This document shows, piece after piece, positions 40,359 to 54,054 of a DNA stretch of 64,000 nucleotides. Origin of the DNA: a virus. The notes below the pieces were generated by a model. It saw only the letters and a program-made list of their open reading frames with translations, ran no database searches and was not told where the DNA came from. The stretch spans positions 1 to 64,000 of IMG/VR virus record IMGVR_UViG_3300035698_011322, one strand, 5' to 3'. The translations under genes were made by a program, and so were the position numbers. The first letter of the stretch is position 1, and each line of letters starts with the position of its first letter.

Positions 40359-40396
40359 AAAAAAGGGATGATGGCGAGTTCATCATCCCTTTTTTG
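40359..40396 (+). terminator. Intrinsic (bidirectional) terminator after HU
   Basis: AAAAAAGGGATGATG/CATCATCCCTTTTTT. Confidence 0.85.
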
Positions 40397-40748: not shown

Positions 40749-41102
40749 ATGGCAAAGATCACAACTCATTGTGAGGACTGCGTAAGATTATTAGGAAAAC
40801 CATATAAAGAAGTCCATGTGTGGTTGGATCATTATGCCAAGAAGTTCAATCCTTTTATCTATCTTGAATATCATAGACAATTCAGGCACACAGAGGTGGC
40901 ACTTAATAAAAAATTCAAGGAATGGGGTTTCTATAGACAACAAGCCGCTAAAATCCATATCATAAGAGACAATGAAGATTTTGTTCTCAGTAAACTATTT
41001 TGTCAAGTAGAAGTTGAGGAAATAGATGCTCTGTATGAAAAAGCAAAACAGTGTTTACATCCTGGTGAAATCGATTATAATGTAGATAACTATAAATTTT
41101 AA
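40749..41102 (+). CDS. His-rich hypothetical protein
   Basis: H....VH.WLD...HRQFRH...H. Confidence 0.7.
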   Translation: MAKITTHCEDCVRLLGKPYKEVHVWLDHYAKKFNPFIYLEYHRQFRHTEVALNKKFKEWGFYRQQAAKIHIIRDNEDFVLSKLFCQVEVEEIDALYEKAKQCLHPGEIDYNVDNYKF

Positions 41103-41122
41103 GGTGGGGGTGGGGGGTTAAA

Positions 41123-41365
41123 ATGGTAAAAATTTGTGTTAAATGTAATGTGTGCCATGATCGATATCCAAAGATAATAGAAGTAGATGCTCGAGAAGTC
41201 AATGAGCAAATGCGGGAACTGTTGGGAATTGTAGAACAAGATAATTGGATAGTTGATTGGCAGTCCGGTGACGCGACTTGTACAGACTGTTTGGGTGAAA
41301 TAGGTATAGAGGTTGAAATTGACCCCAAAACCGGTGATTACAAAACACTGTCATTTAAGGAGTAA
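41123..41365 (+). CDS. Zinc-binding hypothetical protein
   Basis: CNVC...CTDC. Confidence 0.6.
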   Translation: MVKICVKCNVCHDRYPKIIEVDAREVNEQMRELLGIVEQDNWIVDWQSGDATCTDCLGEIGIEVEIDPKTGDYKTLSFKE

Positions 41366-41426
41366 ATACACAGAAATACTCATGATAAATATAGAAGCAA
41401 AGAAAAATATTTTTTTCAAATAACTA

Positions 41427-41490
41427 GTTTACATTTTATCTCAAAAAAGTTATAATAAATCTTAGTCAAAGTAAGAAAGTTATATAAATA
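41427..41490 (+). promoter_or_regulatory. Tandem early + late promoter of tRNA array 1
   Basis: GTTTACA-N17-TATAAT then TATAAATA (41483-90); same layout at 45143-45206. Confidence 0.8.
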
Positions 41491-41598
41491 GAATTGAGGA
41501 TAACGTTGAAGAATATTTTAGTCAAATATTGCAAAATCTGGATAAAGTGGACTATAAAACAAACTCCAGTATATTCTCTTCAATAAAAGGAAAATATT

Positions 41599-41721
41599 AT
41601 GTCAAGAACAACTAAAAAAACTACTACAAGGGGCAATGATTATCGATATATAGTCGAACATCATATTTATGCAATCGTACCGACAACGCATATTATCCCA
41701 ACAGAGGAACATAATATGTAA
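41599..41721 (+). CDS. Leader peptide 1 (40 aa) of putative tRNA-array attenuator
   Basis: AAAGGA RBS; MSRTTKKTTTRGNDYRYIVEHHIYAIVPTTHIIPTEEHNM. Confidence 0.75.
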   Translation: MSRTTKKTTTRGNDYRYIVEHHIYAIVPTTHIIPTEEHNM

Positions 41722-41724
41722 GTA

Positions 41725-41790
41725 TTAGCTGAAATATAAGTAATAACCTAAAGGGTTTCAGCTAAGTTAAAAGTTGAAATCCTTTTTTAG
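41725..41790 (+). terminator. Terminator/antiterminator switch 1
   Basis: 41725-34 pairs with 41756-65; alternatively 41750-63 pairs with 41772-85 ending in a U-run. Confidence 0.8.
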
Positions 41791-41795
41791 TTTAT

Positions 41796-41869
41796 GGTTC
41801 CATCGTCTAATGGTAGGACACCAGACTTTCGATCTGAGAATCGGGGTTCGATCCCCCGTGGAATCGCCA
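41796..41869 (+). tRNA. tRNA-Glu(TTC)
   Basis: Cloverleaf, TTCGA, CCA. Confidence 0.92.
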
Positions 41870-41918
41870 AATTCACCCCGCGAAGAGGGTGTTGAAATAA
41901 TATCTTCGACAAACATAT

Positions 41919-41993
41919 CGCCGAGAAGGCTTGGGGTAAGCCCCTGGTTTTGGGTACCAGTAGCTGTGAGTTCAACTCTCACCTCGGCGACCA
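41919..41993 (+). tRNA. tRNA-Pro(TGG)
   Basis: CTGGT-TTTGGGT-ACCAG, CCA. Confidence 0.88.
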
Positions 41994-42001
41994 ATTTTTA
42001 T

Positions 42002-42078
42002 GGTGGTTGTGGCGAATTGGTAAACGCGATCGGTTGTGGCCCGATTATTAGTGGGATCGTTACCCACCAATCACCCCA
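42002..42078 (+). tRNA. tRNA-His(GTG)
   Basis: G-1:C73, anticodon GTG, CCA. Confidence 0.88.
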
Positions 42079-42154
42079 TTTTATGATCCATATATGAGGC
42101 ATGTTTACAAAATAATTTGATAGTGTTATAATATAATCTTGAAAGGAAAGAATA

Positions 42155-42469
42155 ATGAATGAAAATTATGAAAAACAAATGAAAGTTAATGAATCCTTTG
42201 AAGAGTGTCTTTATAAATTAAAAGATAAAATACAAGTCACCAAATATAGTTATGAAATGTATAATGCCTTGAGTAATATACAATGGCAGAATATAAAAGA
42301 TCCAGAAAATATTTATTCATGTTCATGGCGATATGCAGGTGGTATGATTGCAGAAATAAAAGGATATGGTGAAAACTATTTAGATTTTTATTGTTCTGGC
42401 AATGAAGGTATGGTAACAGAAGAGATTGAGAATGATCTTAATGAATTAGGTTGGAAATCATTAGAATGA
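42155..42469 (+). CDS. Hypothetical protein
   Basis: SCSWRYAGGMIA...YCSGNEG; RBS and promoter. Confidence 0.75.
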   Translation: MNENYEKQMKVNESFEECLYKLKDKIQVTKYSYEMYNALSNIQWQNIKDPENIYSCSWRYAGGMIAEIKGYGENYLDFYCSGNEGMVTEEIENDLNELGWKSLE

Positions 42470-42496
42470 AATTTTGATATAATATGAAGTAAATGA

Positions 42497-42586
42497 GCGT
42501 CGGCCAATAGTGTAAGTGGAGAACACAAGTGGCTGTAACCCACCCGCTGAAAAGCTTTGGGGGTTCGACTCCCTCCCGGCGCACCA
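42497..42586 (+). tRNA. tRNA-Tyr(GTA)
   Basis: Long variable arm, TTCGA, CCA. Confidence 0.82.
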
Positions 42587-42815
42587 TTTATGATTCGTAT
42601 ATAGACCATAAGACACCTTTATGATCCATGTACGAATCACGTTTACAAAATAAAATATCTATGTTATAGTGGGGTATATTAAATGGAATATTGTATTTTG
42701 AGAGAATCATTAAATGAGTGGACAACAGATACAATTTGTTCAAGTAAGAAATATAGACCAATCAAGGGAATTAAGTATAAGTACACTTGTGATAACTATA
42801 AATTGGAGATAATAA

Positions 42816-43004
42816 ATGGAATACAATGATCTAGTAAAAAATGTTTCAAAGGATGCCGGTATTGATGAAGAAGAAGCAGAAAAATGTACGGAATCTTTCT
42901 TTAAATATTTTGAAGGTAAACCAGAAAGTGTACTGGAAGAATTCTTTGGTTATAATCTGATAGAAATAGATTTTAAATATGATGATATGAGATACAAATG
43001 GTAA
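42816..43004 (+). CDS. Small acidic protein (HU N-terminus-like)
   Basis: GGAG RBS. Confidence 0.55.
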   Translation: MEYNDLVKNVSKDAGIDEEEAEKCTESFFKYFEGKPESVLEEFFGYNLIEIDFKYDDMRYKW

Positions 43005-43441
43005 TAGAAAATTATAAACCTTTTAGTGAACAGTTTACAGAGTGTCAAGAGAATGGTAATCTGATAAAGATCGATACATCGATGATGAAAGGATTATATG
43101 GTCATGATGTTGGTGAGATAAATGTCTGTATAAAATATAAATCAATTTGTCATTCTGGAGTATGTAGAGAAGAAAGGACAAAGATGAGAATTAAATGTAC
43201 CGCAATACGATATGAAGGTAAAATATATGAAGGCAAACGTCATGCTGTAATTGGTTTAAAAATGGTACATGATGATATTTGTTCCGCACCTTATCCATTC
43301 GGTGATGATCAGGGTTTTGTAACAGAATGTGGAAAGTATGTTCACAGAGCACCGGCACTTATGATTGCACTTAGATCAGGTCAAGTGAAAGAAGGCGAAC
43401 ATATACGACCAAATGAATTATATAGTGAAGATTTAAAGTAA
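42998..43441 (+). CDS. Hypothetical protein
   Basis: G.RH...QGFVT..G.YV.R...LYSEDL. Confidence 0.65.
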   Translation: MVIENYKPFSEQFTECQENGNLIKIDTSMMKGLYGHDVGEINVCIKYKSICHSGVCREERTKMRIKCTAIRYEGKIYEGKRHAVIGLKMVHDDICSAPYPFGDDQGFVTECGKYVHRAPALMIALRSGQVKEGEHIRPNELYSEDLK

Positions 43442-43447
43442 GTAATA

Positions 43448-43542
43448 GAGGGGGATGTTCCGGTGAGCGGACTGTAAATTCGTTGCACGTTAAAATTTCA
43501 TCGGCGGCTGTGTGAGTGGTTCGATTCCTCCATCCCTCACCA
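43448..43542 (+). tRNA. tRNA-Tyr(GTA)-like, reduced D-arm and oversized variable region
   Basis: GCGGA-CTGTAAA-TTCGT, TTCGA, CCA. Confidence 0.6.
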
Positions 43543-43552
43543 AAAAATATAA

Positions 43553-43639
43553 GCTCTTGTCGCATAGTGATCGATTGCACTGGTTTCGTAATCCAGCGGA
43601 ATAATTCCCACGTAGGTTTAAATCCTATCAAGGGCTCCA
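43553..43639 (+). tRNA. tRNA-Thr(CGT) with extra variable arm
   Basis: Loop TT-CGT-AA, CCA. Confidence 0.78.
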
Positions 43640-43682
43640 GAAACAATAATAAAGATAAAGATAAAGGATTAAGGGTAATCAA

Positions 43683-44384
43683 ATGAAAATTATAATAGCA
43701 GGCGATGTTCATGGTCGATTCGGTGAACTAAACACACTTATCAGTAAACAAAAACCAAATCTTGTGATCTGTTGTGGTGACTTTGGTTACTGGCCTCACT
43801 TTGGTAAAGATGAGTTTAATAAAATCAAACCACAAGGCTCAAAGATACTGTGGTGTGATGGGAACCATGAAGATCATTGGTCTTTGAGAGACAGAAAAAC
43901 CGATGAATTCGTGAAAGACGTTCATTATATGCCAAGAGGATCAACATTTACATTAAGCGATGGTCGTGTCTTACTCTTTATGGGTGGCGGAGATTCAATT
44001 GATAAAAATTCTAGAACAACTGGTGTTGATTGGTTTCCAGAAGAAGTGATTGGACAAAAAGATATTGAGAACCTTCCTGACAAGAAAATTGATATTGTTA
44101 TATCTCATACTTGCCCACTTGAGCTATTAGGTGAAATGAGAGGATATCGAGAAAAAAAAGTAGAACCTTCTAATCACGCTCTTAGCTACATTTTAGAAAA
44201 ATATAATCCTCGCCAATGGTTTTATGGTCACTGGCATTCATATAAAGAAGTGTTACTGAGAAGCACAAAGTTTACTGCTCTATCATGTTTGCCTACTTAC
44301 ATGGGTCATGGTAGATGGTGGATTGAGTTAGATGAGAAAATATCGAGTAAAATATCAACATTTAGTTTTAATGATAATTTTTAA
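43683..44384 (+). CDS. Calcineurin-like metallophosphoesterase
   Basis: GDVHG, GDFG, GNHE, SHTCP, GHWH. Confidence 0.92.
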   Translation: MKIIIAGDVHGRFGELNTLISKQKPNLVICCGDFGYWPHFGKDEFNKIKPQGSKILWCDGNHEDHWSLRDRKTDEFVKDVHYMPRGSTFTLSDGRVLLFMGGGDSIDKNSRTTGVDWFPEEVIGQKDIENLPDKKIDIVISHTCPLELLGEMRGYREKKVEPSNHALSYILEKYNPRQWFYGHWHSYKEVLLRSTKFTALSCLPTYMGHGRWWIELDEKISSKISTFSFNDNF

Positions 44385-44600
44385 ATTTGGTTCGTAGTCG
44401 GAATTCTAACCAATAGAAGACGATGTTTCCAAGGGTGAAATTGATCAAAACAGGGAAGGGTGGTTCCTTTCAATGTCGTGATAAAGTAACCCAAAAACAT
44501 AATATTGTAACATAAAAAGTTAATGTTGACCAGAGCGCGCACTAAATCAGTTAGTGCGCGCTGTGGTTTACATTAAGTATATAGAAAGGAGAAAGTAACA

Positions 44601-44627
44601 ATGATTTATCTATCCAATACCTTCTGA
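44601..44627 (+). CDS. 8-codon leader ORF (MIYLSNTF) overlapping an SD-sequestering hairpin
   Basis: AAAGGAG RBS; stem 44620-30/44637-47 hides AGGAGG of the next gene. Confidence 0.65.
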   Translation: MIYLSNTF

Positions 44628-44654
44628 TGTAACTTAACATTAGGAGGCATACAA

Positions 44655-44987
44655 ATGAAACATGGCGATATTATTCAAGAAGCAGATTGGCTACATTGGT
44701 GGCCTAAGTGGAAAAGATATCCACGTTTACAATACAGATTTAGATACGATCCTGTACCATTATATATCAATAACTATCATAGAGGTTGTTGGTGTAAAAG
44801 ACCACATCACATGAATGAAGAAAAACAATTCTATGCATGTGATCCAAAACTAGTAAGAGGAAAAAGACATCCAAGACACCTTCCAGATCCTTGGGATGAT
44901 CACAAAAGAAGTGATCTAAGAGACAAAAGATCATGGAAAAAAGGATATAGAGTTCGTAAACAATGGATGAAACATATAGCCAGTTAG
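44655..44987 (+). CDS. Basic Trp/Arg-rich protein (LPDPWDD...RSWK...KQW)
   Basis: AGGAGG RBS; stop codon lies inside tRNA-Ile. Confidence 0.8.
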   Translation: MKHGDIIQEADWLHWWPKWKRYPRLQYRFRYDPVPLYINNYHRGCWCKRPHHMNEEKQFYACDPKLVRGKRHPRHLPDPWDDHKRSDLRDKRSWKKGYRVRKQWMKHIAS

Positions 44988-45051
44988 CTCAACGGAAGAG
45001 CCCGCGATCGATAATCGCGTGATAAAAGTTCAATTCTTTTACTGGCTACCA
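44978..45051 (+). tRNA. tRNA-Ile(GAT), C33 variant
   Basis: CGCGA-TCGATAA-TCGCG, CCA. Confidence 0.78.
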
Positions 45052-45056
45052 AATTT

Positions 45057-45130
45057 AGCCCTATAATAGAATGGTAGAATATTTCTTTTACAAGGAAATT
45101 AACTTGGTTCGATTCCAAGTGGGGCTACCA
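45057..45130 (+). tRNA. tRNA-Val(TAC)
   Basis: Loop TT-TAC-AA, TTCGA, CCA; weak D-stem. Confidence 0.75.
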
Positions 45131-45142
45131 AAATAAAAAGTA

Positions 45143-45206
45143 GTTTACAATTATTTCAAAAAAAGTTATAATAAATGTAATTGAAGTTGAGAAAGTTATA
45201 TAAATA
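45143..45206 (+). promoter_or_regulatory. Tandem early + late promoter of tRNA array 2
   Basis: GTTTACA-N17-TATAAT; TATAAATA 45199-45206. Confidence 0.8.
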
Positions 45207-45220
45207 GAAAGTAGGAGTAA

Positions 45221-45334
45221 ATGATGATGGCGAGAAAAATTAATAGGCAAAAACAGAATAATAGATGTTTATCGACAGGCATACTTGCGTTCTCCTCATC
45301 ATTTTTGAATTGGGCAGGAGATAAGTGCCTATGA
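45221..45334 (+). CDS. Leader peptide 2 (37 aa) of putative tRNA-array attenuator
   Basis: AGGAG RBS; MMMARKINRQKQNNRCLSTGILAFSSSFLNWAGDKCL. Confidence 0.75.
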   Translation: MMMARKINRQKQNNRCLSTGILAFSSSFLNWAGDKCL

Positions 45335-45336
45335 TC

Positions 45337-45405
45337 TAGCTGAAACATAAAGTAATATTTTAAGGGGGTTTCAGCTAAAAAGTTAAAGTTGTAACCCCTT
45401 TTTAG
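45337..45405 (+). terminator. Terminator/antiterminator switch 2
   Basis: 45337-46 pairs with 45368-77; alternatively 45362-76 pairs with 45387-401 ending in a U-run. Confidence 0.8.
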
Positions 45406-45412
45406 TTTATTC

Positions 45413-45487
45413 GGATATGTCGTATAAAGGGAATTATACTTGACTCTTAATCAAGATGATGTTGGTTCAAATCAAATCGTACCATCA
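45413..45487 (+). tRNA. tRNA-Lys(CTT), degenerate
   Basis: CTTGA-CTCTTAA-TCAAG intact; acceptor and T stems broken; ends TCA. Confidence 0.55.
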
Positions 45488-45511
45488 AACAATAGAAAGG
45501 AAAATATTAAA

Positions 45512-46153
45512 ATGAACACATATCATAAAATCCAAACGGTATTTTTAAGAGATCCTAAAACTAAGTTCAAAACACTTTTAGAAGGTCAGTTTGCTAAATT
45601 TGAGTTTGAATATCTCGCAGAACTTATGTGGGCATGGACAGAAAAAGTTGATGGTACTAATATTCGCGTACAGTATGATAGTGATGAAAAGAGCCTTAAC
45701 TTTAATGGCAAGACAGATAGGGCTCAGTTACAGGCAACTCTTTTCGAGTACCTAACAGAAACCTTTACACCAAAGAAACAACTTTTTATGGATACATTTG
45801 ATAAAGAGAATGTTAAAGTATGTTTATACGGTGAGGGTTATGGCCCCAGAATTCAAAAAGGTGGTGGCCTGTATCGTAAAGATCAGAGTTTTGTATTGTT
45901 CGATGTAAAGATCAATGATTGGTGGTTAAAACGTGGTGATGTAGAAAATATCGGACATAAGTTTGGTATTGATGTTGTACCAATCATTCGCCATGGTAAT
46001 CTTTATGAAATGGTCGAGTTTGTTAGAAATGGTTTTAATTCACAATGGGGAGATTTTCTAGCAGAAGGTATTGTTGCAAGACCATTCGTGGATTTGAGAG
46101 CAAGAAGTGGTGAAAGAATCATTACTAAACTAAAATGTAAAGATTTTGTATAA
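45512..46153 (+). CDS. RNA ligase (Rnl2-like nucleotidyltransferase)
   Basis: YHKI, TEKVDGTN, YGEGYG, FDV, EGIV, KLK. Confidence 0.88.
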   Translation: MNTYHKIQTVFLRDPKTKFKTLLEGQFAKFEFEYLAELMWAWTEKVDGTNIRVQYDSDEKSLNFNGKTDRAQLQATLFEYLTETFTPKKQLFMDTFDKENVKVCLYGEGYGPRIQKGGGLYRKDQSFVLFDVKINDWWLKRGDVENIGHKFGIDVVPIIRHGNLYEMVEFVRNGFNSQWGDFLAEGIVARPFVDLRARSGERIITKLKCKDFV

Positions 46154-46162
46154 AATGAATAT

Positions 46163-46240
46163 TGTGGATTAGAGAAGTGGCCTATATAGGAGGGTTCGAA
46201 TCCTTCAGATAGGTGGGGGTGATCGATTTCCAACCCGCCA
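46163..46240 (+). pseudogene. Scrambled tRNA remnant
   Basis: D-arm-like start, GGTTCGAATCC T-arm, terminal CCA, no anticodon arm. Confidence 0.45.
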
Positions 46241-46245
46241 TATAA

Positions 46246-46318
46246 GGGTTTGTAGTTCAATGGTAGAACATTCGGTTCTTACCCGAAAAATTAGGTTTCG
46301 ATACCTACGAACCCACCA
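46246..46318 (+). tRNA. tRNA-Lys(CTT)
   Basis: TTCGG-TTCTTAC-CCGAA, CCA. Confidence 0.8.
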
Positions 46319-46340
46319 TACAATAGAAAGGAGTATTAAA

Positions 46341-47039
46341 ATGGAAAAGTTAACTAATTACCCAAAAACATATTGCCCCTTTATAAGAAAAACATTTGAT
46401 GTTAATAAAGATCAATGGAAAAAATATGGTCGAAAACTTCAACTACGTGAGCCTAATGTTTATCTTGCAGTGAATGAGATTAATCCTGGTTATGAATGGG
46501 TTCTTGATGATCCTGATACGTTTGCAGTTGAAAAACTTGATGGTACAAATGTTAAACTCAAAACAGAAAATGGTAGATTAATTGCTCTTCAAAATAGATT
46601 GAATATCATTGATCCACTTCAAATAGTAAAAGGTAAGGCATTTATTCTCGAAGGCGTTTTTCAAGCAATTGGGAAGGGTTATGTTGAGAAAGATGGGGAA
46701 CAATCAGGCGAAGTTATTGGAACAAAACTTCAAGGCAATCCATATGAACTCAATAATACACATCTATGGTATCCTTTTGAAAAGTCTATAAAGCATTTAA
46801 AATACAAGTCTTTTTTTAATCATGATAGAACTTTTGATAATTGGAGTTCATGGTTCAAAGATTACTTATTTTCCCTCTTTGCAATGAAAAGAGGTAACAA
46901 GGATATTATGGCAGAAGGTGTAATATTTTATAATCTAAAAAGAAAAGCCGAAGGTAAAATATATAGAGCAAAACTTAGAAGAGACATGTTTGAATGGTAT
47001 TATAGTGATAAGATTGATATTTACAATTATCATGGGTAA
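46341..47039 (+). CDS. Second RNA ligase-like nucleotidyltransferase
   Basis: VEKLDGTN, GEVIG, QGNPY, EGVIF, AKLRRDMF. Confidence 0.82.
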   Translation: MEKLTNYPKTYCPFIRKTFDVNKDQWKKYGRKLQLREPNVYLAVNEINPGYEWVLDDPDTFAVEKLDGTNVKLKTENGRLIALQNRLNIIDPLQIVKGKAFILEGVFQAIGKGYVEKDGEQSGEVIGTKLQGNPYELNNTHLWYPFEKSIKHLKYKSFFNHDRTFDNWSSWFKDYLFSLFAMKRGNKDIMAEGVIFYNLKRKAEGKIYRAKLRRDMFEWYYSDKIDIYNYHG

Positions 47040-47059
47040 TGATATTATAAAATAAATGA

Positions 47060-47148
47060 TGCGGGTTAGAGTAGCCAGGTCAACTCACTAGTCTCATAAG
47101 CTAGAGCTCTTAACGAGCACGGGGGTTCGAGTCCCCCACCCGCTACCA
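47060..47148 (+). tRNA. tRNA-Met(CAT) with 1:72 mismatch and long variable arm
   Basis: Loop CT-CAT-AA, TTCGA, CCA. Confidence 0.82.
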
Positions 47149-47381
47149 AAAAAGATAAACGAGTTTGACTCATGTTTATAGTGTTCTAGACACCATTTAA
47201 AAATAGTTGGTTTGTGCTCAAAGAATATCAATTATGGCATATTCATTGTAGTATACTGAGTGAAAGCCTCAGGACTCGTTTGTTGATAAAAAAGTAGTGA
47301 GAATGTATAATAAAGATTACGTTGTGAACACGAACGTTATGTGGTAAAACATGGTTTTGTATAGGTCCTGGAGTGCCCTAA

Positions 47382-47458
47382 GCCCTTGTAGCTGAACTGG
47401 ATCAGCACGAAACTTCTAATTTCGTTCTATGTGGGTTCGAATCCCATCAAGGGTTCCA
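47382..47458 (+). tRNA. tRNA-Arg(TCT)
   Basis: Cloverleaf, CCA. Confidence 0.9.
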
Positions 47459-47466
47459 AAAAATAC

Positions 47467-47544
47467 GGTCTGTTGGAAGTAGGTGGTGAACTTCGTGAGA
47501 CTGTCAATCTCAAGTAGCGGGTTCGATTCCCGTACAGACCGCCA
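47467..47544 (+). tRNA. tRNA-Asp(GTC)
   Basis: Cloverleaf, G73, CCA. Confidence 0.9.
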
Positions 47545-47720
47545 AAGAAATGGTATCATAAGTTAATACCATAGAAGAAGATTATAAGTTAAAATCTATT
47601 CCAGAATGGTGTCCTTTAGAAAATGCAGAAGAGTATCATTTACATGGACGTATAGATCATCCATTTTAATAGAATGAGGAAGGCGCCGTCAACAGTGACA
47701 AACAATATAAATTAATCTTA

Positions 47721-47806
47721 GGAAGAAATCCGGTTGGATGAGGACGCAGTCTTGAAAACTGTTGGGTGTAAAAGCTTTGGGGGTTCGAATCCCTCTTCTT
47801 CCGCCA
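47721..47806 (+). tRNA. tRNA-Ser(TGA)
   Basis: Long variable arm, G73, CCA. Confidence 0.9.
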
Positions 47807-47853
47807 TTAAAGAGTTTTGATGATTTTTATACATTTTGAACTAAATTATTATT

Positions 47854-47919
47854 GCGGCCTGAGCTAGTGTGGTCATATCGTTCGGTTTAAACCCGGAAGA
47901 ATTCAGAGAGGTCGCGCCA
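47854..47919 (+). pseudogene. tRNA pseudogene lacking T-arm (loop TT-TAA-AC; possibly ex-Phe)
   Basis: Acceptor GCGGCCT/AGGTCGC, D-arm, CCA. Confidence 0.55.
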
Positions 47920-48105
47920 AAATTAAAGGAGTATGATAGTGAGTAAAACAATAATAATGGCAGAAGAATTTGGTATTTATTGGTCTAAAGATGATCTAAA
48001 GAACCTAAGAGAACTGTTATACATAGGTTTGGGTGGTAATATTGGCGATGAAAGAATAAATTATATAGGAATCGCGGTTATAGACAGAATAGAGGAGAGA
48101 TTAAA

Positions 48106-48537
48106 ATGAACTTAATACCACTTGAAAAATGTGTAAAGGGCAGAGTATATAAACTCGATTGCCGTAATTTTAATTATGGTGTGTATAATGGTAAATATGG
48201 CTTCATTGGTATTCGCCGCAAGTTCAATGATAGATTTCTATTTACTGAATATCACAAAGATATAGATCCCCACTATGGTACTGTTATAAGAATGGAAGAC
48301 ATGGGTATCGATGTTCCGGATGATATAGAACTAAAAGAAGACGAGCCAACCATTGATAGAAATACTGGCAGACACGTGTGGTTCGATAAACCAGTTGTTG
48401 ATGGTGGTCGAGGCTGGGTATACAAAGATACTGATGAAAATAGTTATGATATAAAACCAGTCTCTCATGTGAATAGAAAATTGTTTAAATTCTTGGATGA
48501 TATGTGGGAGGATTTTAATTATACAGAAGTAGAGTAA
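48106..48537 (+). CDS. Hypothetical protein
   Basis: GAGGAG RBS; 143 aa. Confidence 0.75.
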   Translation: MNLIPLEKCVKGRVYKLDCRNFNYGVYNGKYGFIGIRRKFNDRFLFTEYHKDIDPHYGTVIRMEDMGIDVPDDIELKEDEPTIDRNTGRHVWFDKPVVDGGRGWVYKDTDENSYDIKPVSHVNRKLFKFLDDMWEDFNYTEVE

Positions 48538-48542
48538 TATAA

Positions 48543-48627
48543 GCACCCAGCCCTTAATCTGAGAGGGACTCAGGCAAGTCTCCAAAGCTTGTGGCATAAA
48601 GGCGTTCAACTCGTCCTGGGTGTGCCA
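48543..48627 (+). tRNA. tRNA-Trp(CCA), atypical D-region
   Basis: CAAGT-CTCCAAA-GCTTG, CCA. Confidence 0.72.
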
Positions 48628-48637
48628 AAATAAATAT

Positions 48638-48713
48638 GGGGGCGTAGCCAAATCGGGAAGGCACTTGGTTTGCAACCAAGAGATTGAGGGATCGTTCCCC
48701 TCCGCCTCCACCA
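48638..48713 (+). tRNA. tRNA-Ala(TGC)
   Basis: G3:U70 pair, CCA. Confidence 0.9.
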
Positions 48714-48790
48714 AATGATTTAATAGATAAAAAAACATCAATACTTTATGGTTGGAAAAGAGGTAGATCAAAAGGTAATTTTAATCCTAT

Positions 48791-48869
48791 ACCCTAGTAT
48801 ACCCTCTGGCTACGAACCAGTTGAAAGGTTAACGAACACATGTGGGTTTGAATCCCATCTAGGGTTCCA
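48791..48869 (+). tRNA. tRNA-Arg(ACG)-like lacking a D-arm
   Basis: ACCCTAG/CTAGGGT acceptor, CTGG-CTACGAA-CCAG, T-arm, CCA. Confidence 0.65.
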
Positions 48870-48873
48870 CTAA

Positions 48874-48950
48874 GGGCTGTGTTATCAGATGGTTTTCTGG
48901 TGACTGGTTGCAATCCAGTTTTTGAGGTTCAATTCCTCCGCGGCCCTCCA
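48874..48950 (+). tRNA. tRNA-Cys(GCA)
   Basis: U73, CCA. Confidence 0.82.
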
Positions 48951-49003
48951 ACTTTAAAAAAAAGTAGTTTACAATAAATATGATTTGAGATATAATAGTT
49001 AAA

Positions 49004-49232
49004 TATGACATAGATAGTTCCTATAAAAATATTAATAAATAAGAAATACTATCCGTCATATAATTAGTTATCAAGTGACATAAATGGTTCCTCTATAAAA
49101 ACTGGAACCGGATGCTGGCGAGCCTTTGGTTCGTACCAGACCGGTTATTAAATTACCATTCGTCATTTAAAATATTGGGCAAATGAAAGTTCCTATAAAA
49201 CACACTTGATATGTATAATTACTTTCCGCCCA
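49004..49232 (+). ncRNA. Three structurally conserved hairpin RNAs (Y-RNA-like candidates)
   Basis: Units 49004-60, 49075-166, 49176-232 with covarying stems and shared GTTCCT(CT)ATAAAA; promoter at 48967. Confidence 0.7.
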
Positions 49233-49254
49233 TAACAAATTAAAAGGAGTGAAA

Positions 49255-51159
49255 ATGAAACGATCATTGTTAAGATTATTTAAAGCTGTTGAGATCGAAT
49301 CCACACCTAAACATAAAGATGCCGAAGTTAGCCGTTATATCAATGGTATAACATTAAAGAGTGGTTTCGTTTTCTCTCCAGAGATTCATTATAATTGTCC
49401 TCAAAGCAAAATGATAGAGATGGCCAATGTAATAACTAATGAATTGGGTATCACTTCAGAACAAATGAATAATGCTTTCCATAAGTCATGGGATAAGGTT
49501 GCCAATGCTGATCTGTTATTGCTTCAATTAGAACAAGCAATTCATTATGCAACAACCTATGGTTATGAATCAATCGGTATATTCAAGAACAGTACTGTAT
49601 TCATTCCAGATGAACAATTGGATGTACCTGGTTTAGAAAATGGTATTAAGTTAACTGTTATCAAAGGTATGACAAAGTATGATATGAGAGTTGCCTTGAT
49701 GGACTTGCTTGATACGGGCATTGCATTGAAAGAAGATACAGTTGTTGATTGTGTTGTATTGGGTAAATATCTTGAACTGTCAAATGATGAAATCAATAGT
49801 ATCAATAATAAAGAAGTAAAGACTGCTCTTTTTGATGAACTAGGTGGTGTTCCAAAGAATCCAATTGAGTTCCTGAGATATGTTGTTTATAGAGTTACTG
49901 GTAAAACATTATTGATCAAAAATCAAGCACTTATTGCTCAAATCAAAGAAGGTAATTTGGATAGAGCACTTGATCCATTTAAAATGTATGATATTGGATA
50001 TGGTATGAATCATTTGTCAGGAATCTTCAATAGATTCAAACCATTGTTCTTGGCTTTCAAGGCTCATAGGGAATTGAAGCCTGTTATAAACAAGTTGAGT
50101 AAACTTTCTAAGAAATATCATGAACCAATGAAGAGTGATTATTTAAATGATATTACAGCTATGATTAAGAATAGTATACACATTGATGTTCGTACTCTTC
50201 GAGACAAACTTAACAAAGCAAACGCTTTCAGAAAAATCAGATTGGCTTATGCTTTAAACTATAGAACCAATGATGTTAGTTCAATCCTTTATAGAGTCAG
50301 AAATGGCAAGGGGTTTTCAACTGAATTTTCGTTTGATAATAAGAGAGTTGCCAAGAGAGCACTGAACATTGTATTGGATTCGATTGCCAAAGATCTTAAA
50401 AGAAATGTGGAAGGCAAGAAAATATATGTTCCATCTAATATTAGATATGCTCTGCCTGCAACTGAGAAACAATTTACAGGCAACTTCCCAACTGGCACAA
50501 GTGTAGTGGTTGATAGTGATATGATCTTTGGTATTCATTGGAATGATATTGGTGGATATAGAATTGATTTGGATCTATCATTAATTGATGTAACTGGATA
50601 TAAATATGGCTGGGATAGCAATTATCGTAATGAAGATAAGAGTATTTTGTTTTCTGGTGATATGACTTCCGCTCCTGGGCCAATGGGTGCAACGGAGTTG
50701 TTCTATGTTAGAAATAATGTTGTTGGATCAAACATCTTGTCAGTTAATTATTACAACTATATGGATGATGTTCCTGTTCCATTCAAGATCATTGTTGGTA
50801 AAGATAAAACAGATAAGTTCAGAAATAACTATGTACTCGATCCTAATAATGTAGTAATGACGTCTTCATCAAAAATGAATGTTAAACAAAAGGTATTGGG
50901 TCTACTGAACACTACTAAAGATGAATGTAGATTTTACTTCACAGAGGTTGATATGGGTAACTCTATAACATCATCTTCTACGTATGATTATGTTACTCAT
51001 GCTAGAAAGTATATGTTCGACTTCTATAAAAACAACATAGACCTTGATGTGATGCTACTAATGGCGGGTGCTGAGTTTGTAGAAAATGTAGAAGATTGTG
51101 ACATTGATCTTTCACCTGAGAATATTAAAAAGGATGATATAATTAATATGTTAGTGTAA
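49255..51159 (+). CDS. Large protein with helical N-terminus and TerD-like C-terminal domain
   Basis: ALPATEKQF.G..P.G, GIHW...DLDLS, FSGDMTSAP..GATE. Confidence 0.65.
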   Translation: MKRSLLRLFKAVEIESTPKHKDAEVSRYINGITLKSGFVFSPEIHYNCPQSKMIEMANVITNELGITSEQMNNAFHKSWDKVANADLLLLQLEQAIHYATTYGYESIGIFKNSTVFIPDEQLDVPGLENGIKLTVIKGMTKYDMRVALMDLLDTGIALKEDTVVDCVVLGKYLELSNDEINSINNKEVKTALFDELGGVPKNPIEFLRYVVYRVTGKTLLIKNQALIAQIKEGNLDRALDPFKMYDIGYGMNHLSGIFNRFKPLFLAFKAHRELKPVINKLSKLSKKYHEPMKSDYLNDITAMIKNSIHIDVRTLRDKLNKANAFRKIRLAYALNYRTNDVSSILYRVRNGKGFSTEFSFDNKRVAKRALNIVLDSIAKDLKRNVEGKKIYVPSNIRYALPATEKQFTGNFPTGTSVVVDSDMIFGIHWNDIGGYRIDLDLSLIDVTGYKYGWDSNYRNEDKSILFSGDMTSAPGPMGATELFYVRNNVVGSNILSVNYYNYMDDVPVPFKIIVGKDKTDKFRNNYVLDPNNVVMTSSSKMNVKQKVLGLLNTTKDECRFYFTEVDMGNSITSSSTYDYVTHARKYMFDFYKNNIDLDVMLLMAGAEFVENVEDCDIDLSPENIKKDDIINMLV

Positions 51160-51168
51160 GGGAATCAA

Positions 51169-51252
51169 GCCACCATAGAGGAAATGGTCTACTCAACAGG
51201 TTTAGGCCCTGTGCCTTCGGGCGTCTCGGTTCGAATCCGAGTGGTGGTACCA
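51169..51252 (+). tRNA. tRNA-Leu(TAG)
   Basis: Variable arm, CCA. Confidence 0.88.
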
Positions 51253-51264
51253 GTTAATAATTAA

Positions 51265-51351
51265 GCGGTTGTAGACTAATTGATAAGTCACCAGTCTTCC
51301 AAGCTGGCGTCAGAAATGACATTGTGAGTTTGAATCTCACCAGCCGCTCCA
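51265..51351 (+). tRNA. tRNA-Gly(TCC) with long variable arm
   Basis: GCG/CGC-T-CCA; extra GTCA-GAAA-TGAC arm. Confidence 0.82.
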
Positions 51352-51368
51352 ATAAAGGATTGGTGATT

Positions 51369-51533
51369 ATGATGGACACAATAAAAGATAGAGCTAAAGA
51401 ATTATTGAGACTAAGTAGAATAGAACTGAAAAGAAGATCAGAGTTACTTAAACTAAAGAATATAGAAGGGGCTGGTAAAATAAAACTAGCTGTTATGATC
51501 GCTGTGAAAGAATATATTGATGATCCAGACTAG
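51369..51533 (+). CDS. Small hypothetical protein
   Basis: AAGGA RBS. Confidence 0.5.
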   Translation: MMDTIKDRAKELLRLSRIELKRRSELLKLKNIEGAGKIKLAVMIAVKEYIDDPD

Positions 51534-51592
51534 TTTACATTTTATATACTATCTGATATACTATATACAAGTTAAAGAATTGTGTATTTATA

Positions 51593-51773
51593 GGGAGAGA
51601 GTTGAGATTGGGGATGATAAACTCAACAGAGATATGGGCAAATCCGGATAAGCCCCATATAGCATAAAGGTTAATTGCGAGAAAGAACTGTTCAATTCGA
51701 ATATCGCGACATCCTGTAAAAAGTTATGCTTGTCTCAATAGAGGCAAGTATAACAACAATATGTAACTCTCCC
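51593..51773 (+). ncRNA. Candidate ~180-nt multibranch ncRNA, family unknown
   Basis: Closing stem GGGAGAG/CTCTCCC plus four internal helices; promoter at 51533. Confidence 0.65.
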
Positions 51774-51791
51774 GCTATAAGTACATAATTT

Positions 51792-51869
51792 GCCGGAGTG
51801 GTGTAAATGGTAGCCACGCGAGGTTTAAGCCTTCGTGCCTGAGATGGTGTAGGGGGGTTTCCGGTATCA
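51792..51869 (+). pseudogene. tRNA-Leu(TAA) with disrupted T-arm
   Basis: Intact D and anticodon arms; T-loop missing; ends TCA. Confidence 0.65.
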
Positions 51870-51874
51870 TATAT

Positions 51875-51949
51875 CGCGGAGAGGATGCTGGTTTCCAACT
51901 AGGGCTCATATCCCTGGTCGCGTCGGTTCGATTCCGATCTCCGCTCCCA
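51875..51949 (+). tRNA. Initiator-type tRNA-Met(CAT)
   Basis: C1 mismatch, GGG/CCC anticodon stem, CCA. Confidence 0.8.
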
Positions 51950-51956
51950 AAAATAA

Positions 51957-52033
51957 TGGGGTATCGTCCAATTGGCAGGACAGCGGACTTTGAATCCGCT
52001 AATGATCTGGTTCGAATCCATCTACCCCAGCCA
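51957..52033 (+). tRNA. tRNA-Gln(TTG)
   Basis: Cloverleaf, CCA. Confidence 0.9.
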
Positions 52034-52044
52034 TAATACAGCAT

Positions 52045-52130
52045 GCCCGCATAGACGAAATGTGGCATAGTCACTAGTTTCAAACACTAGGCCCTCGGGC
52101 GTGTAGGTTCGACCCCTACTGCGGGTACCA
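52045..52130 (+). tRNA. tRNA-Leu(CAA)
   Basis: Variable arm, CCA. Confidence 0.88.
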
Positions 52131-52144
52131 GAAAGGAAAAACAA

Positions 52145-52375
52145 ATGAAACTATGTATAGATTGTAGATATTATGATAGTGTTAAAGGTATATCTTTATT
52201 CTTTAAAACAAAGGCATGCATACATCCAAAGAATATTGAAATAAATCCAGTCACTGGTGATATAGAGTATGGATCCACACCAAGTCATTTAAGAAAATTT
52301 GTTGATGCTTATTGTGATAAAGATGCTTATTGTGATAAAGATGGTAAGTGGTTTAAGAAAAGAGTGAAGAAATAA
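52145..52375 (+). CDS. Small Cys-rich phage protein
   Basis: CIDCRYY...C; DAYCDK duplicated. Confidence 0.7.
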   Translation: MKLCIDCRYYDSVKGISLFFKTKACIHPKNIEINPVTGDIEYGSTPSHLRKFVDAYCDKDAYCDKDGKWFKKRVKK

Positions 52376-52378
52376 TAT

Positions 52379-52453
52379 AGTCTAGTAGCTCAATGGTAGA
52401 GCATTCAACTTATAATTGAAAAACGTAAGGTTCGATTCCTTTCTAGACTACCA
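52379..52453 (+). tRNA. tRNA-Ile(TAT)
   Basis: TTCAA-CTTATAA-TTGAA, CCA. Confidence 0.85.
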
Positions 52454-52545
52454 AATAATTTTTATAGTTCAAAGTACTACAATGTTGCTCAAAAAAGAAT
52501 TAGAGAGTATGTAAAGACACAGAATAGCAAAGGGGAATTTTTCAA

Positions 52546-52728
52546 ATGAAAATATTACAAAAAGTTTTAATATTGGTTGGTCTTAGTGGGTTTCTATTAA
52601 GTGTTCTAGTTGCCATATTATTACCATCAGCCATTTCTCTCGCAGTGATTATATGGTTTTGTTCATCTTGTATTATGGCAATAATAGGTCTTGTATGGTA
52701 TTATAGAAATCCAATTAAAATGTATTAG
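52546..52728 (+). CDS. Two-TM membrane protein
   Basis: Hydrophobic 60 aa. Confidence 0.6.
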   Translation: MKILQKVLILVGLSGFLLSVLVAILLPSAISLAVIIWFCSSCIMAIIGLVWYYRNPIKMY

Positions 52729-52746
52729 GAGGAGGGGGGGGGGTTT

Positions 52747-52956
52747 ATGACAGATATGAAATTTAAGCATTATATTTTATCACCGGATTTAGACGAAGCA
52801 GCATATATGGGTAACATAGGCTTTGAAGAACTTGTAAGCTACTATAAAAAAGCATCTAAAAAAGAAATTAAAATTATAGAAGATATAATTAAAAAAGAAG
52901 ATTGGGAAGAATTTAAGAATCAAATCTTTAAGGTATTGGGTAAAAAACTAAAATAA
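52747..52956 (+). CDS. Small protein with capsid-targeting-like N-terminus
   Basis: MKFKHYIL...LDEAAY.GNIGF.E. Confidence 0.7.
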   Translation: MTDMKFKHYILSPDLDEAAYMGNIGFEELVSYYKKASKKEIKIIEDIIKKEDWEEFKNQIFKVLGKKLK

Positions 52957-53217
52957 GATAATTCACAACTAAACACTAAATCGGCATAGGATTTTCATTC
53001 TATGCTGATTTTTTTGTTTACATTTTTTACATAATTTAGTATAATATATGTAATGTTCTACACAATAAATTAAATTATGTAATTTATTTCATAGTAATTA
53101 ATATTTTATAATGCTTTGTTTTCATATGTTTTGAAGTATTTTTTAAAATATTGGGATATTGGCATAATTATTGTATATAACATGTAGTAAAATAATAATA
53201 AAAAGGAGAATGAGAAA

Positions 53218-53940
53218 ATGAGAAAAATTTTAATGAGTTTAACGATTTTAATGTTAGGAATGTTTTTAGTAGTTGGGAATGTGTCAGCGTTAGCAATTAA
53301 TTCCGATTCAACAATGTCTACAGAAGGTGTGATATATAATGAATCAAATGCTGAGACATTGGTTTTGAATGATGTTGATCAAGCTGATATGCATGCTTAT
53401 TTTATATTAGAGCTAGCAGGTTGGTCTGGTCAAAATGTATTTGGGATTTATGGTATTTCAGAAGATGGTAATGGTAATGCTCTTGCACCTAGTTCAAATC
53501 AAATGCTTTCTTTATTTGATGGCGTGGAGGGTACATATTCAGTTAGTATTAAATTTGATCTAGTTAATGATCAAGCATGGAGAGTGGATAATCCAACAGA
53601 TGTTAAAGATATAGGAATGGAATTTGGTTTGTATCTTGATTCATCAGCTACAATAAGTAATCTATCAGGTATTTTCTTTTCACAGAATGATCTTAATATT
53701 AATTCACATGACTATTTTTGGATCTATGATGTGTCTAATGGTATTTCAACAGAGATCGGTGGATATGAGACTGTTGTAGCAATGGAAGATCAATTGTTTG
53801 GTGGTGGGGATAATGATCATAATGACTTGGTTGTTGGTATTACTGATGCGTCGCCAGTACCCGAGCCAGCAACAATGCTACTATTAGGAACAGGATTGCT
53901 TGGATTTGTATCTATAGGTAGAAGAAAATTTAAAAAATAA
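53218..53940 (+). CDS. PEP-CTERM-sorted surface protein (DUF4114-like)
   Basis: Signal peptide; EDQ.FGGGDNDHND; VPEPATMLLLGTGLLG...RRKFKK. Confidence 0.92.
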   Translation: MRKILMSLTILMLGMFLVVGNVSALAINSDSTMSTEGVIYNESNAETLVLNDVDQADMHAYFILELAGWSGQNVFGIYGISEDGNGNALAPSSNQMLSLFDGVEGTYSVSIKFDLVNDQAWRVDNPTDVKDIGMEFGLYLDSSATISNLSGIFFSQNDLNINSHDYFWIYDVSNGISTEIGGYETVVAMEDQLFGGGDNDHNDLVVGITDASPVPEPATMLLLGTGLLGFVSIGRRKFKK

Positions 53941-54054
53941 TATAAATAAAATATAATAGAATATTTAATCGATATAGGCATTACGCCTATATCGATTTTT
54001 TTTGTTTACATTTTGTATTATGTATAGTATAATATAATATAAAGGAGAAATAAA

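Follow-up and report, generated by a model that had tools for sequence, protein, structure and literature searches.

Transcription attenuators of amino-acid biosynthetic operons (trpL, hisL, thrL, ilvL) combine a promoter-proximal terminator with an overlapping antiterminator, preceded by a short leader that contains the regulatory codons and whose stop lies a few nucleotides (nt) before the antiterminator 5' strand. In the ilvL and thrL leaders of enterobacteria, several amino acids are sensed together. The supply of usable tRNA also sets the expression of decoding machinery in pheST of E. coli, through pheM, and in genes with T-box leaders. In antibiotic-resistance attenuators (vmlR, msr/mef), a ribosome stalled on a short upstream open reading frame (ORF) blocks the terminator (PMC9226507, PMC4335068). 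Fast translation leads to termination by default in those systems, as it would in the elements described here. We analyzed the first 64 kb (hereafter, the window) of the 74.6-kb IMG/VR record IMGVR_UViG_3300035698_011322, and found two paralogous cassettes that resemble the known attenuators in these respects, each located before a tRNA transcription unit. We believe that each cassette is probably a ribosome-mediated (leader-peptide) transcription attenuator that controls the tRNA unit downstream.

It is over 50 years since tRNA genes were first recognised in phages, and there is still dispute over what they are for, with codon compensation on one side and escape from tRNA-targeting immunity on the other. 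To our knowledge, the control of their expression has hardly been addressed. The tRNA repair pathway of phage T4 (Pnkp/Rnl1) is established. The available parts of two studies describe phage tRNAs that counter tRNA-targeting defences (PMC10264068, PMC11555353). In a search of the full-text literature we found no account of phage tRNA genes under the control of a leader peptide or an attenuator; a first-pass annotation of the window, made from its letters and without database searches, likewise knew of no described equivalent.

Results

Two paralogous cassettes precede the tRNA units

The cassettes are at positions 41428-41791 and 45144-45407 (Table 1). Homology extends over the promoter parts and the switch parts, and the intervening leaders have neither sequence nor length in common. 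The first-pass annotation had described the same architecture occurring twice, with a ribosome-binding site and an ORF of 37-40 codons, and had called the switches homologous and the leaders not. Our comparison of the cassettes agrees, and nearly all of the elements are at the coordinates it gave. For its early and late promoters, TTTACA-17-TATAAT and TATAAATA are both present, and TATAAATA, located within GTTATATAAATAG, may serve as a late promoter. There are ten TTTACA-17-TATAAT promoter-like sites in the record. The 13-mer GTTATATAAATAG occurs only twice in its 74.6 kb, once in each cassette. The Shine-Dalgarno sites of both leaders have a strength typical for genes of this phage and are in the top 2-8% of random ATGs.

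The sequence pair TAGCTGAAA...TTTCAGCTA that forms the antiterminator has exactly two occurrences, compared to zero expected from shuffles. TAGCTGAAA begins 4 nt past the leader stop in cassette 1 and 2 nt past the stop in cassette 2; with one extra pair in cassette 1, the strand begins 3 nt past the stop. These distances, and the 10-11 bp formed with the terminator 5' arm, bear out the pairing originally described for a strand 2-3 nt past the stop. tRNA-Glu begins 10 nt past terminator 1, and a tRNA-like gene begins 11 nt past terminator 2.

The antiterminator and the terminator are mutually exclusive. When the transcript was folded up to the antiterminator 3' strand, the antiterminator was the minimum-energy structure in both cassettes, and when the terminator 3' arm was added, the terminator won (energies in Table 1). 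Prediction favours the antiterminator for as long as the terminator 3' arm has not emerged, in agreement with the switch as originally proposed. The two helices overlap by 9-10 nt and could coexist only with a pseudoknot. The antiterminator helices of cassettes 1 and 2 each had a shuffle p of about 0.01.

The position of the leader stop is compatible with control by a ribosome. A ribosome usually reaches roughly 12 nt downstream of its A site. On this basis, 7-8 nt of the antiterminator 5' strand would lie under a ribosome positioned at the stop, and a ribosome held at any codon but the last one or two would leave that strand free. A hairpin that does not pair with the antiterminator strand is predicted over the last leader codons in cassettes 1 and 2 and in two related loci (L129 and L136, below), and could possibly be a pause hairpin for RNA polymerase.

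The codons of each leader match the tRNAs of its own unit

We pooled the 20 tRNA species of both units and scored every possible split into 7 and 13 species (77,520 splits) for the fit of leader 1 to the set of 7 and of leader 2 to the set of 13. The real split was the single best of the 77,520 (p = 1.3e-5). All seven unit-1 species were commoner in leader 1, compared to 0 of the 13 unit-2 species. The real split was still the unique best when the weak Tyr and Trp genes were left out (5e-5), when Met was left out (2e-5), at the level of amino acids (8e-5), and after length normalisation. When the leader DNA was read in its five other frames, two forward and three reverse, partition p values were 0.44-0.98, indicating that base composition was not the cause of the codon match.

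The composition of the two leaders was also unusual. E, P, H, Y, T, I and V account for 27 of the 40 residues of leader 1, which places it in the top 0.13% of 40-residue windows in the proteins of this phage. By hand count they account for 22 of its last 26 residues, and L, C, W, F and Q are absent. Leader 2 has no E, P, H, Y or V, and its count of the same seven residues equals the lowest in any 37-residue window of the proteins of this phage. The counts and absent residues are as the first-pass annotation gave them. The number of distinct residues in the two leaders was unremarkable.

We also compared the share of codons read by a unit's own tRNAs in the leader with that in the phage's genes, using partial arrays only; this test has no power for phages with full arrays. 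The own-unit share was 0.38 in leader 1 (W1) against a background of 0.18 (P = 0.002), and 0.61 in leader 2 (W2) against 0.35 (P = 0.0015). The leader of locus L147, from another phage, had an own-unit share of 0.72 against a background of 0.41 (P = 0.0005).

The design recurs in other phages with different helix sequences

There was no match to either cassette by blastn against 50,697 phage records and no near relative in the phage collection. An exact search of IMG/VR for the inverted repeat gave 38 matches, all attributable to chance at the rate expected for a collection of that size.

An orthologue of cassette 2 was found on the minus strand of a metagenome contig, L127, with 82% nucleotide identity. 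The frame of its leader is kept through a 3-nt deletion, and the stop is kept 2 nt before the same strand. There are 8 non-synonymous and 3 synonymous changes relative to leader 2, indicating that the leader peptide itself is not conserved. The first tRNA of L127 is an intact tRNA-Asn(GTT) that has decayed in the window, and this accounts for the orphan Asn codons of leader 2. The tRNA-Lys of L127 is TTT, and the sole differing leader Lys codon is AAA in L127 and AAG in the window (tRNA CTT); this is a single observation. In an alignment of the three homologous switches the helix arms were invariant, so there was no countable pair-by-pair covariation.

On the minus strand of L127 at approximately 1466-2242, between tRNA-Asn and tRNA-Lys, is a 258-aa ORF at the position that RNA ligase 1 has in the window. 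By eye, the N-terminus of its product resembles a GIY-YIG homing endonuclease, and its presence in place of RNA ligase 1 suggests turnover of mobile elements inside the array.

Five further cassettes, in four other phage records, have the same architecture before tRNA arrays, with unrelated helix sequences. L129 shares a ligase-like gene with the window at 71% identity and has an entirely different helix sequence. It has a promoter and TATAAATA, a 41-codon leader with a stop that abuts an 11-bp antiterminator (-10.5 kcal/mol), and a terminator (-17.8 kcal/mol). Its single array covers all 20 amino acids and its leader uses 19 kinds of residues. In L136 (66% identity) the helix is of yet another sequence, the third (10/10 bp, -17.6 vs -16.4 kcal/mol), and a 43-codon leader with 17 kinds of residues precedes one large array. 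L041 has the same design with a 28-codon leader. The remaining two cassettes are from one phage: L075 has a 19-codon leader with its stop inside a 10-bp antiterminator, and L147 has the design with a weak antiterminator. In all five cassettes the leader stop abuts or overlaps the antiterminator strand. An ORF with its stop at the antiterminator, as the first-pass annotation expected of relatives, is thus kept despite the different helix sequences.

Several other features of these loci were noted. A 15-codon ORF with a strong ribosome-binding site, at 6206-6253 of L129, overlaps the start of the 41-codon leader (TAATG), and leader translation may be coupled to it. About nine tandem hairpin units of approximately 35 nt are at the contig end of L041, just upstream of the attenuator (1-400 and 5700-6063), and this phage has a tmRNA gene embedded in its tRNA array. 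The array of L135, from a related 223-kb phage, contains a tRNA with anticodon CTA (amber-suppressor type) at 1113.

Antiterminators were characteristic of the terminators that precede tRNA arrays. We compared the 60 nt upstream of each terminator with its 5' arm and evaluated the complementarity against shuffles. It was significant (p<=0.013) for 5/7 terminators before tRNA arrays, compared to 1/29 other strong terminators in the same loci. The lone ordinary terminator with an apparent antiterminator (L135, minus strand) is inside a coding gene and was rejected as a chance match. The tRNA arrays of L050, L052, L054 and L056, which are relatives by way of a 636-aa protein, have no attenuator.

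Content and boundaries of the tRNA units

Only three strong terminators lie on the + strand from 40.4 to 53 kb: the two switch terminators and the one at 52978-53011. They define two tRNA units (Table 1). Elsewhere in this phage there are back-to-back units in which a terminator is followed by a promoter (40362-40392, 52978-53045 and 53967-54033); the order promoter, leader and then terminator is found only in the two tRNA cassettes.

The tRNA lists of the first-pass annotation were right overall, with qualifications: two Leu genes rather than three were found in array 2, the Tyr genes are weak, and the first gene after switch 2 is decayed. Both Tyr(GTA) genes are below Rfam thresholds and one has a broken acceptor stem; the decayed copy (42499-42585) has three acceptor-stem mismatches. 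The decayed tRNA-like copy at 45413-45486 reads CTT and its L127 orthologue is the intact Asn(GTT) gene. The Trp and second Met tRNAs were detected only under relaxed ARAGORN settings. Three tRNAs with class I anticodons are 87-89 nt: Thr(CGT) at 43553-43639, Met(CAT) at 47060-47148 and Gly(TCC) at 51265-51351. Their length suggests a long variable arm; only for the Thr gene does the printed structure show it. Similarly long Ile tRNAs are present in L052 and L129.

There is no space for a promoter between the switch terminator and the first gene in either unit, indicating that Glu-Pro-His and the region 45413-47039 could be made only by read-through. This region contains the first tRNA-like gene, RNA ligase, tRNA-Lys, and the second ligase-like gene. 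In profile searches, nucleotidyltransferase motif I (EKxDGTN) was all that the ligase-like protein had in common with RNA ligase 1, and the protein matched no Pfam or PHROG family; its AlphaFold model (predicted local distance difference test score, pLDDT, of 46) was too poor for a structure search. It is 66-84% identical across seven relatives, and the attenuator is also found in three of these (L127, L129 and L136). A sequence search of the PDB with RNA ligase 1 gave no match. Homologues of RNA ligase 1 were found at 66-71% identity, the closest at 71%. RNA ligase 1 was rejected as a phage marker, its bacterial homologues being no more distant than those from phages.

The record has an estimated completeness of 31%, indicating that at 74.6 kb it derives from a large phage; this uncultured phage is from salt lakes. 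Genes surrounding the tRNA region make up a replication and nucleotide-metabolism module (helicases, NAD-dependent DNA ligase, SSB). No relatives were found by searching with the protein encoded upstream of cassette 1. Low-depth pieces identical to the window were found in several salt-lake metagenomes, and four salt-lake DNA runs match the window identically over both switches and so provided no informative variants; no RNA run was listed as containing the phage. The product of the ORF at 53218-53940 has a PEP-CTERM-like tail (PEP motif, hydrophobic stretch, basic end), which hints at a Gram-negative host with an exosortase.

Table 1. Features of the two cassettes and their tRNA units in the window
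Feature	Position	Strand	Remarks
Cassette 1 sigma-70-type promoter, TTTACA-17-TATAAT	41428..41456	+	homologous to 45144-45172
GTTATATAAATAG element, cassette 1	41479..41491	+	contains T4-late-promoter-like TATAAATA
Leader 1 Shine-Dalgarno site, AAAGGA	41586..41591	+	-5.6 kcal/mol against anti-Shine-Dalgarno, the median of phage genes
Leader ORF 1, 40 codons + TAA	41599..41721	+	18 codons read by array-1 tRNAs
Hairpin over last leader 1 codons	41687..41719	+	fold prediction
Antiterminator 5' strand, cassette 1	41725..41735	+	pairs with 41755-41765, -11.4 kcal/mol
Antiterminator 3' strand, cassette 1	41755..41765	+	inside terminator 5' arm
Intrinsic terminator 1 + T run	41750..41791	+	hairpin 41750-41785; 14-bp stem, -16.1 kcal/mol
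tRNA unit 1	41796..45130	+	Glu, Pro, His, Tyr (decayed), Tyr, Thr(CGT), Ile(GAT), Val
Metallophosphoesterase gene	43683-44384	+	within unit 1, alongside small genes
Cassette 2 promoter, TTTACA-17-TATAAT	45144..45172	+	
GTTATATAAATAG element, cassette 2	45195..45207	+	
Leader 2 Shine-Dalgarno site, AGGAG	45213..45217	+	-6.1 to -6.8 kcal/mol
Leader ORF 2, 37 codons + TGA	45221..45334	+	23 codons read by array-2 tRNAs, 1 by array-1
Antiterminator 5' strand, cassette 2	45337..45346	+	pairs with 45368-45377, -13.4 kcal/mol
Antiterminator 3' strand, cassette 2	45368..45377	+	inside terminator 5' arm
Intrinsic terminator 2 + T run	45362..45407	+	hairpin 45362-45401; -16.2 kcal/mol
tRNA unit 2	45413..52453	+	decayed Asn-derived copy, Lys(CTT), Met, Arg, Asp, Ser, Trp, Ala, then Cys, Leu(TAG), Gly, Met, Gln, Leu(CAA), Ile(TAT)
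RNA ligase (PF09414; RNA ligase 1)	45509-46153	+	unit 2
Second ligase-like gene	46338-47039	+	unit 2
Strong terminator closing unit 2	52978..53011	+	next promoter follows

Discussion

We propose that each cassette couples transcription of its tRNA unit to the rate at which the leader is decoded. The first-pass annotation had inferred such a switch, and the computational tests made of it support that reading. Transcription would start at the cassette promoter and a ribosome would translate the leader of 37-40 codons. If decoding is fast, the ribosome would be at the stop while RNA polymerase transcribes the switch, where it would mask the antiterminator 5' strand, and the terminator would fold and stop transcription 10 nt short of the first tRNA. 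A ribosome delayed at any point in the leader would leave time for the 10-11-bp antiterminator to form first and sequester the terminator 5' arm, and polymerase would continue into the tRNAs and the genes of RNA-repair type. With a leader rich in own-unit codons, each unit would respond mainly to a shortage of the tRNAs that it supplies. The new tRNAs would speed translation of the leader and restore termination, forming a negative feedback loop.

The trigger might be cleavage of host tRNAs, a mismatch in codon usage, or a general slowdown of translation. The units contain RNA ligase and phosphoesterase genes, which makes a connection with host anticodon nucleases plausible; supply-and-demand feedback on decoding speed would fit equally well.

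Several observations weigh against this proposal. The mechanism presumes that transcription and translation are coupled in the host. The predicted folds contain no region-1-type partner for the antiterminator strand, and therefore an untranslated or slowly translated leader should read through. Internal promoter-like sites at 42104, 42642, 47020, 47283, 48968 and 51534 may feed distal tRNAs, so the switch would be the sole control only for Glu-Pro-His and 45413-47039; the first-pass annotation had pointed out four of these sites (42104, 42642, 48968 and 51534), and those at 47020 and 47283 are additional. A tRNA array without an attenuator was found at L135/L146. The codon match is also imperfect. 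In leader 1, 7/8 Thr codons (ACA, ACT) are not read by the sole Thr tRNA of the array (CGT), and the first 14 codons are mostly unmatched or of array-2 type. In leader 2, the AAA codons are not read by Lys(CTT). For Thr and Lys, the match is closer at the level of amino acids than at that of codons. Leader 2 has Phe and Asn codons for which the window offers no intact cognate tRNA, a caveat already attached to the original description, which the Asn(GTT) gene of L127 resolves for Asn. The L075 leader was not enriched for codons of its own unit (share of 0.33 against a background of 0.29, P = 0.42), and the two-leader partition for the L075/L147 phage gave p = 0.03, or 0.11 after normalisation. 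The suggestion that leader codons track downstream anticodons therefore holds for the window, in the ORF frame only, and for L147, and fails for L075.

Some of these points would also be expected if the cassettes were ribosome-dependent but unspecific attenuators that report overall translation capacity or coupling, with host shut-off, ribosome-targeting defence, or the stage of infection as inputs and a codon match that has no regulatory meaning. With no region-1 hairpin, a delay anywhere in the leader would give read-through; the leaders of the single-array phages (L129 and L136) are simply diverse; and the absence of enrichment in L075 and the poor anticodon-level match of the Thr and Lys codons are in keeping with such a sensor. 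It would not explain why the real split of tRNA species is the unique best, and only in the ORF frame, or why enrichment was found independently in L147. Further, the paralogous flanks of the two cassettes are highly similar yet the leaders are unrelated, as expected of specialised leaders. We consider an unspecific sensor unlikely, but a serious alternative. We regard as very unlikely that the terminators are controlled by a factor (a protein antiterminator, a loop-binding protein, or a switch from early to late polymerase) and that the short ORFs are irrelevant. The two promoter-like elements in each cassette, including TATAAATA, do suggest temporal control, and the loop motif AAGTAA is common to cassette 1, cassette 2 and L127. 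This motif is explained by paralogy and is absent from the loops of L129, L136, L075 and L041; with nut/qut-type sites and put RNA considered, the switch regions of the window and these four loci have no common sequence motif. What is conserved across lineages is an ORF stop that abuts or just precedes the antiterminator strand, and the ORFs have Shine-Dalgarno sites of the grade found in genes. There was no match at gathering score to the T-box (RF00230) or to any other Rfam cis-regulatory family in the window, and at E<=1 the only cis-regulatory matches in 41000-53000 were at chance level and all coincided with tRNA genes.

It is also conceivable that the leaders are ordinary small genes with their own promoter and terminator, that the tRNAs are expressed by leaky read-through or from internal promoters, and that the complementarity is coincidental. 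Terminators without an antiterminator are located directly before tRNAs elsewhere (two in L066 and one each in L067, L068, L100 and L103), and internal promoter-like sites exist. But the antiterminator is specific to terminators of tRNA arrays in the comparison above, the codon partition would be left unexplained, and neither Glu-Pro-His nor 45413-47039 has a promoter of its own. Additionally, a functional protein would be conserved, and the peptide of the L127 orthologue is not. We give this explanation hardly any credence.

Given the elements of the cassettes and their spacing, two folds that exclude each other, the partition of codons and anticodons between the units, and the recurrence in other phages, we believe that attenuation of tRNA genes by leaders tuned to their arrays is the most likely and most economical reading, with good statistical support for the codon tuning in the window. 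As judged from sequence, the design is present in at least five lineages of large phages. We lean, somewhat cautiously, toward a broader view in which a clade of large phages keeps tRNA arrays and RNA-repair genes under codon-tuned, self-correcting sensors of decoding speed that also fire when a host defence cleaves or depletes the tRNAs of the array; these would be the first known transcription attenuators of tRNA genes, and multiplexed forms of the classical design for a single amino acid.

If this is true, the phage puts its tRNA supply under regulation, and its leaders reveal which tRNA shortages it expects. Leader-peptide attenuation would reach beyond biosynthetic operons to take in RNA genes and viruses. 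Reporter fusions would make the element a sensor of tRNA depletion by defence systems. The element would also be a compact, reprogrammable part for synthetic biology, in which swapping leader codons should alter what is sensed.

The proposed attenuators differ from the known systems in what they sense and what they control. The attenuators of amino-acid operons govern biosynthetic enzymes and contain runs of one to three codons, whereas the phage cassettes govern tRNAs together with RNA-ligase and phosphoesterase genes, and their leaders sample from 7 to at least 13 tRNA species. The cassettes are phage-borne, they have no region-1 anti-antiterminator, and their tRNA output would act on the very step that is sensed. 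pheM responds to a single tRNA, and its target is a synthetase. T-box leaders, found in aminoacyl-tRNA synthetase genes of Gram-positive bacteria, bind uncharged tRNA directly and need no ribosome. The vmlR and msr/mef attenuators depend on a drug and a nascent-peptide stall, whereas the phage leaders have no conserved peptide motif and it is apparently the codon content that varies. The available parts of the two studies of phage tRNAs in defence describe no regulation of the tRNA genes (PMC10264068, PMC11555353). The units resemble the T4 repair system and the tRNA-based defences of phages in having large tRNA arrays beside RNA ligase and phosphoesterase genes, a plausible ground for expression driven by demand.

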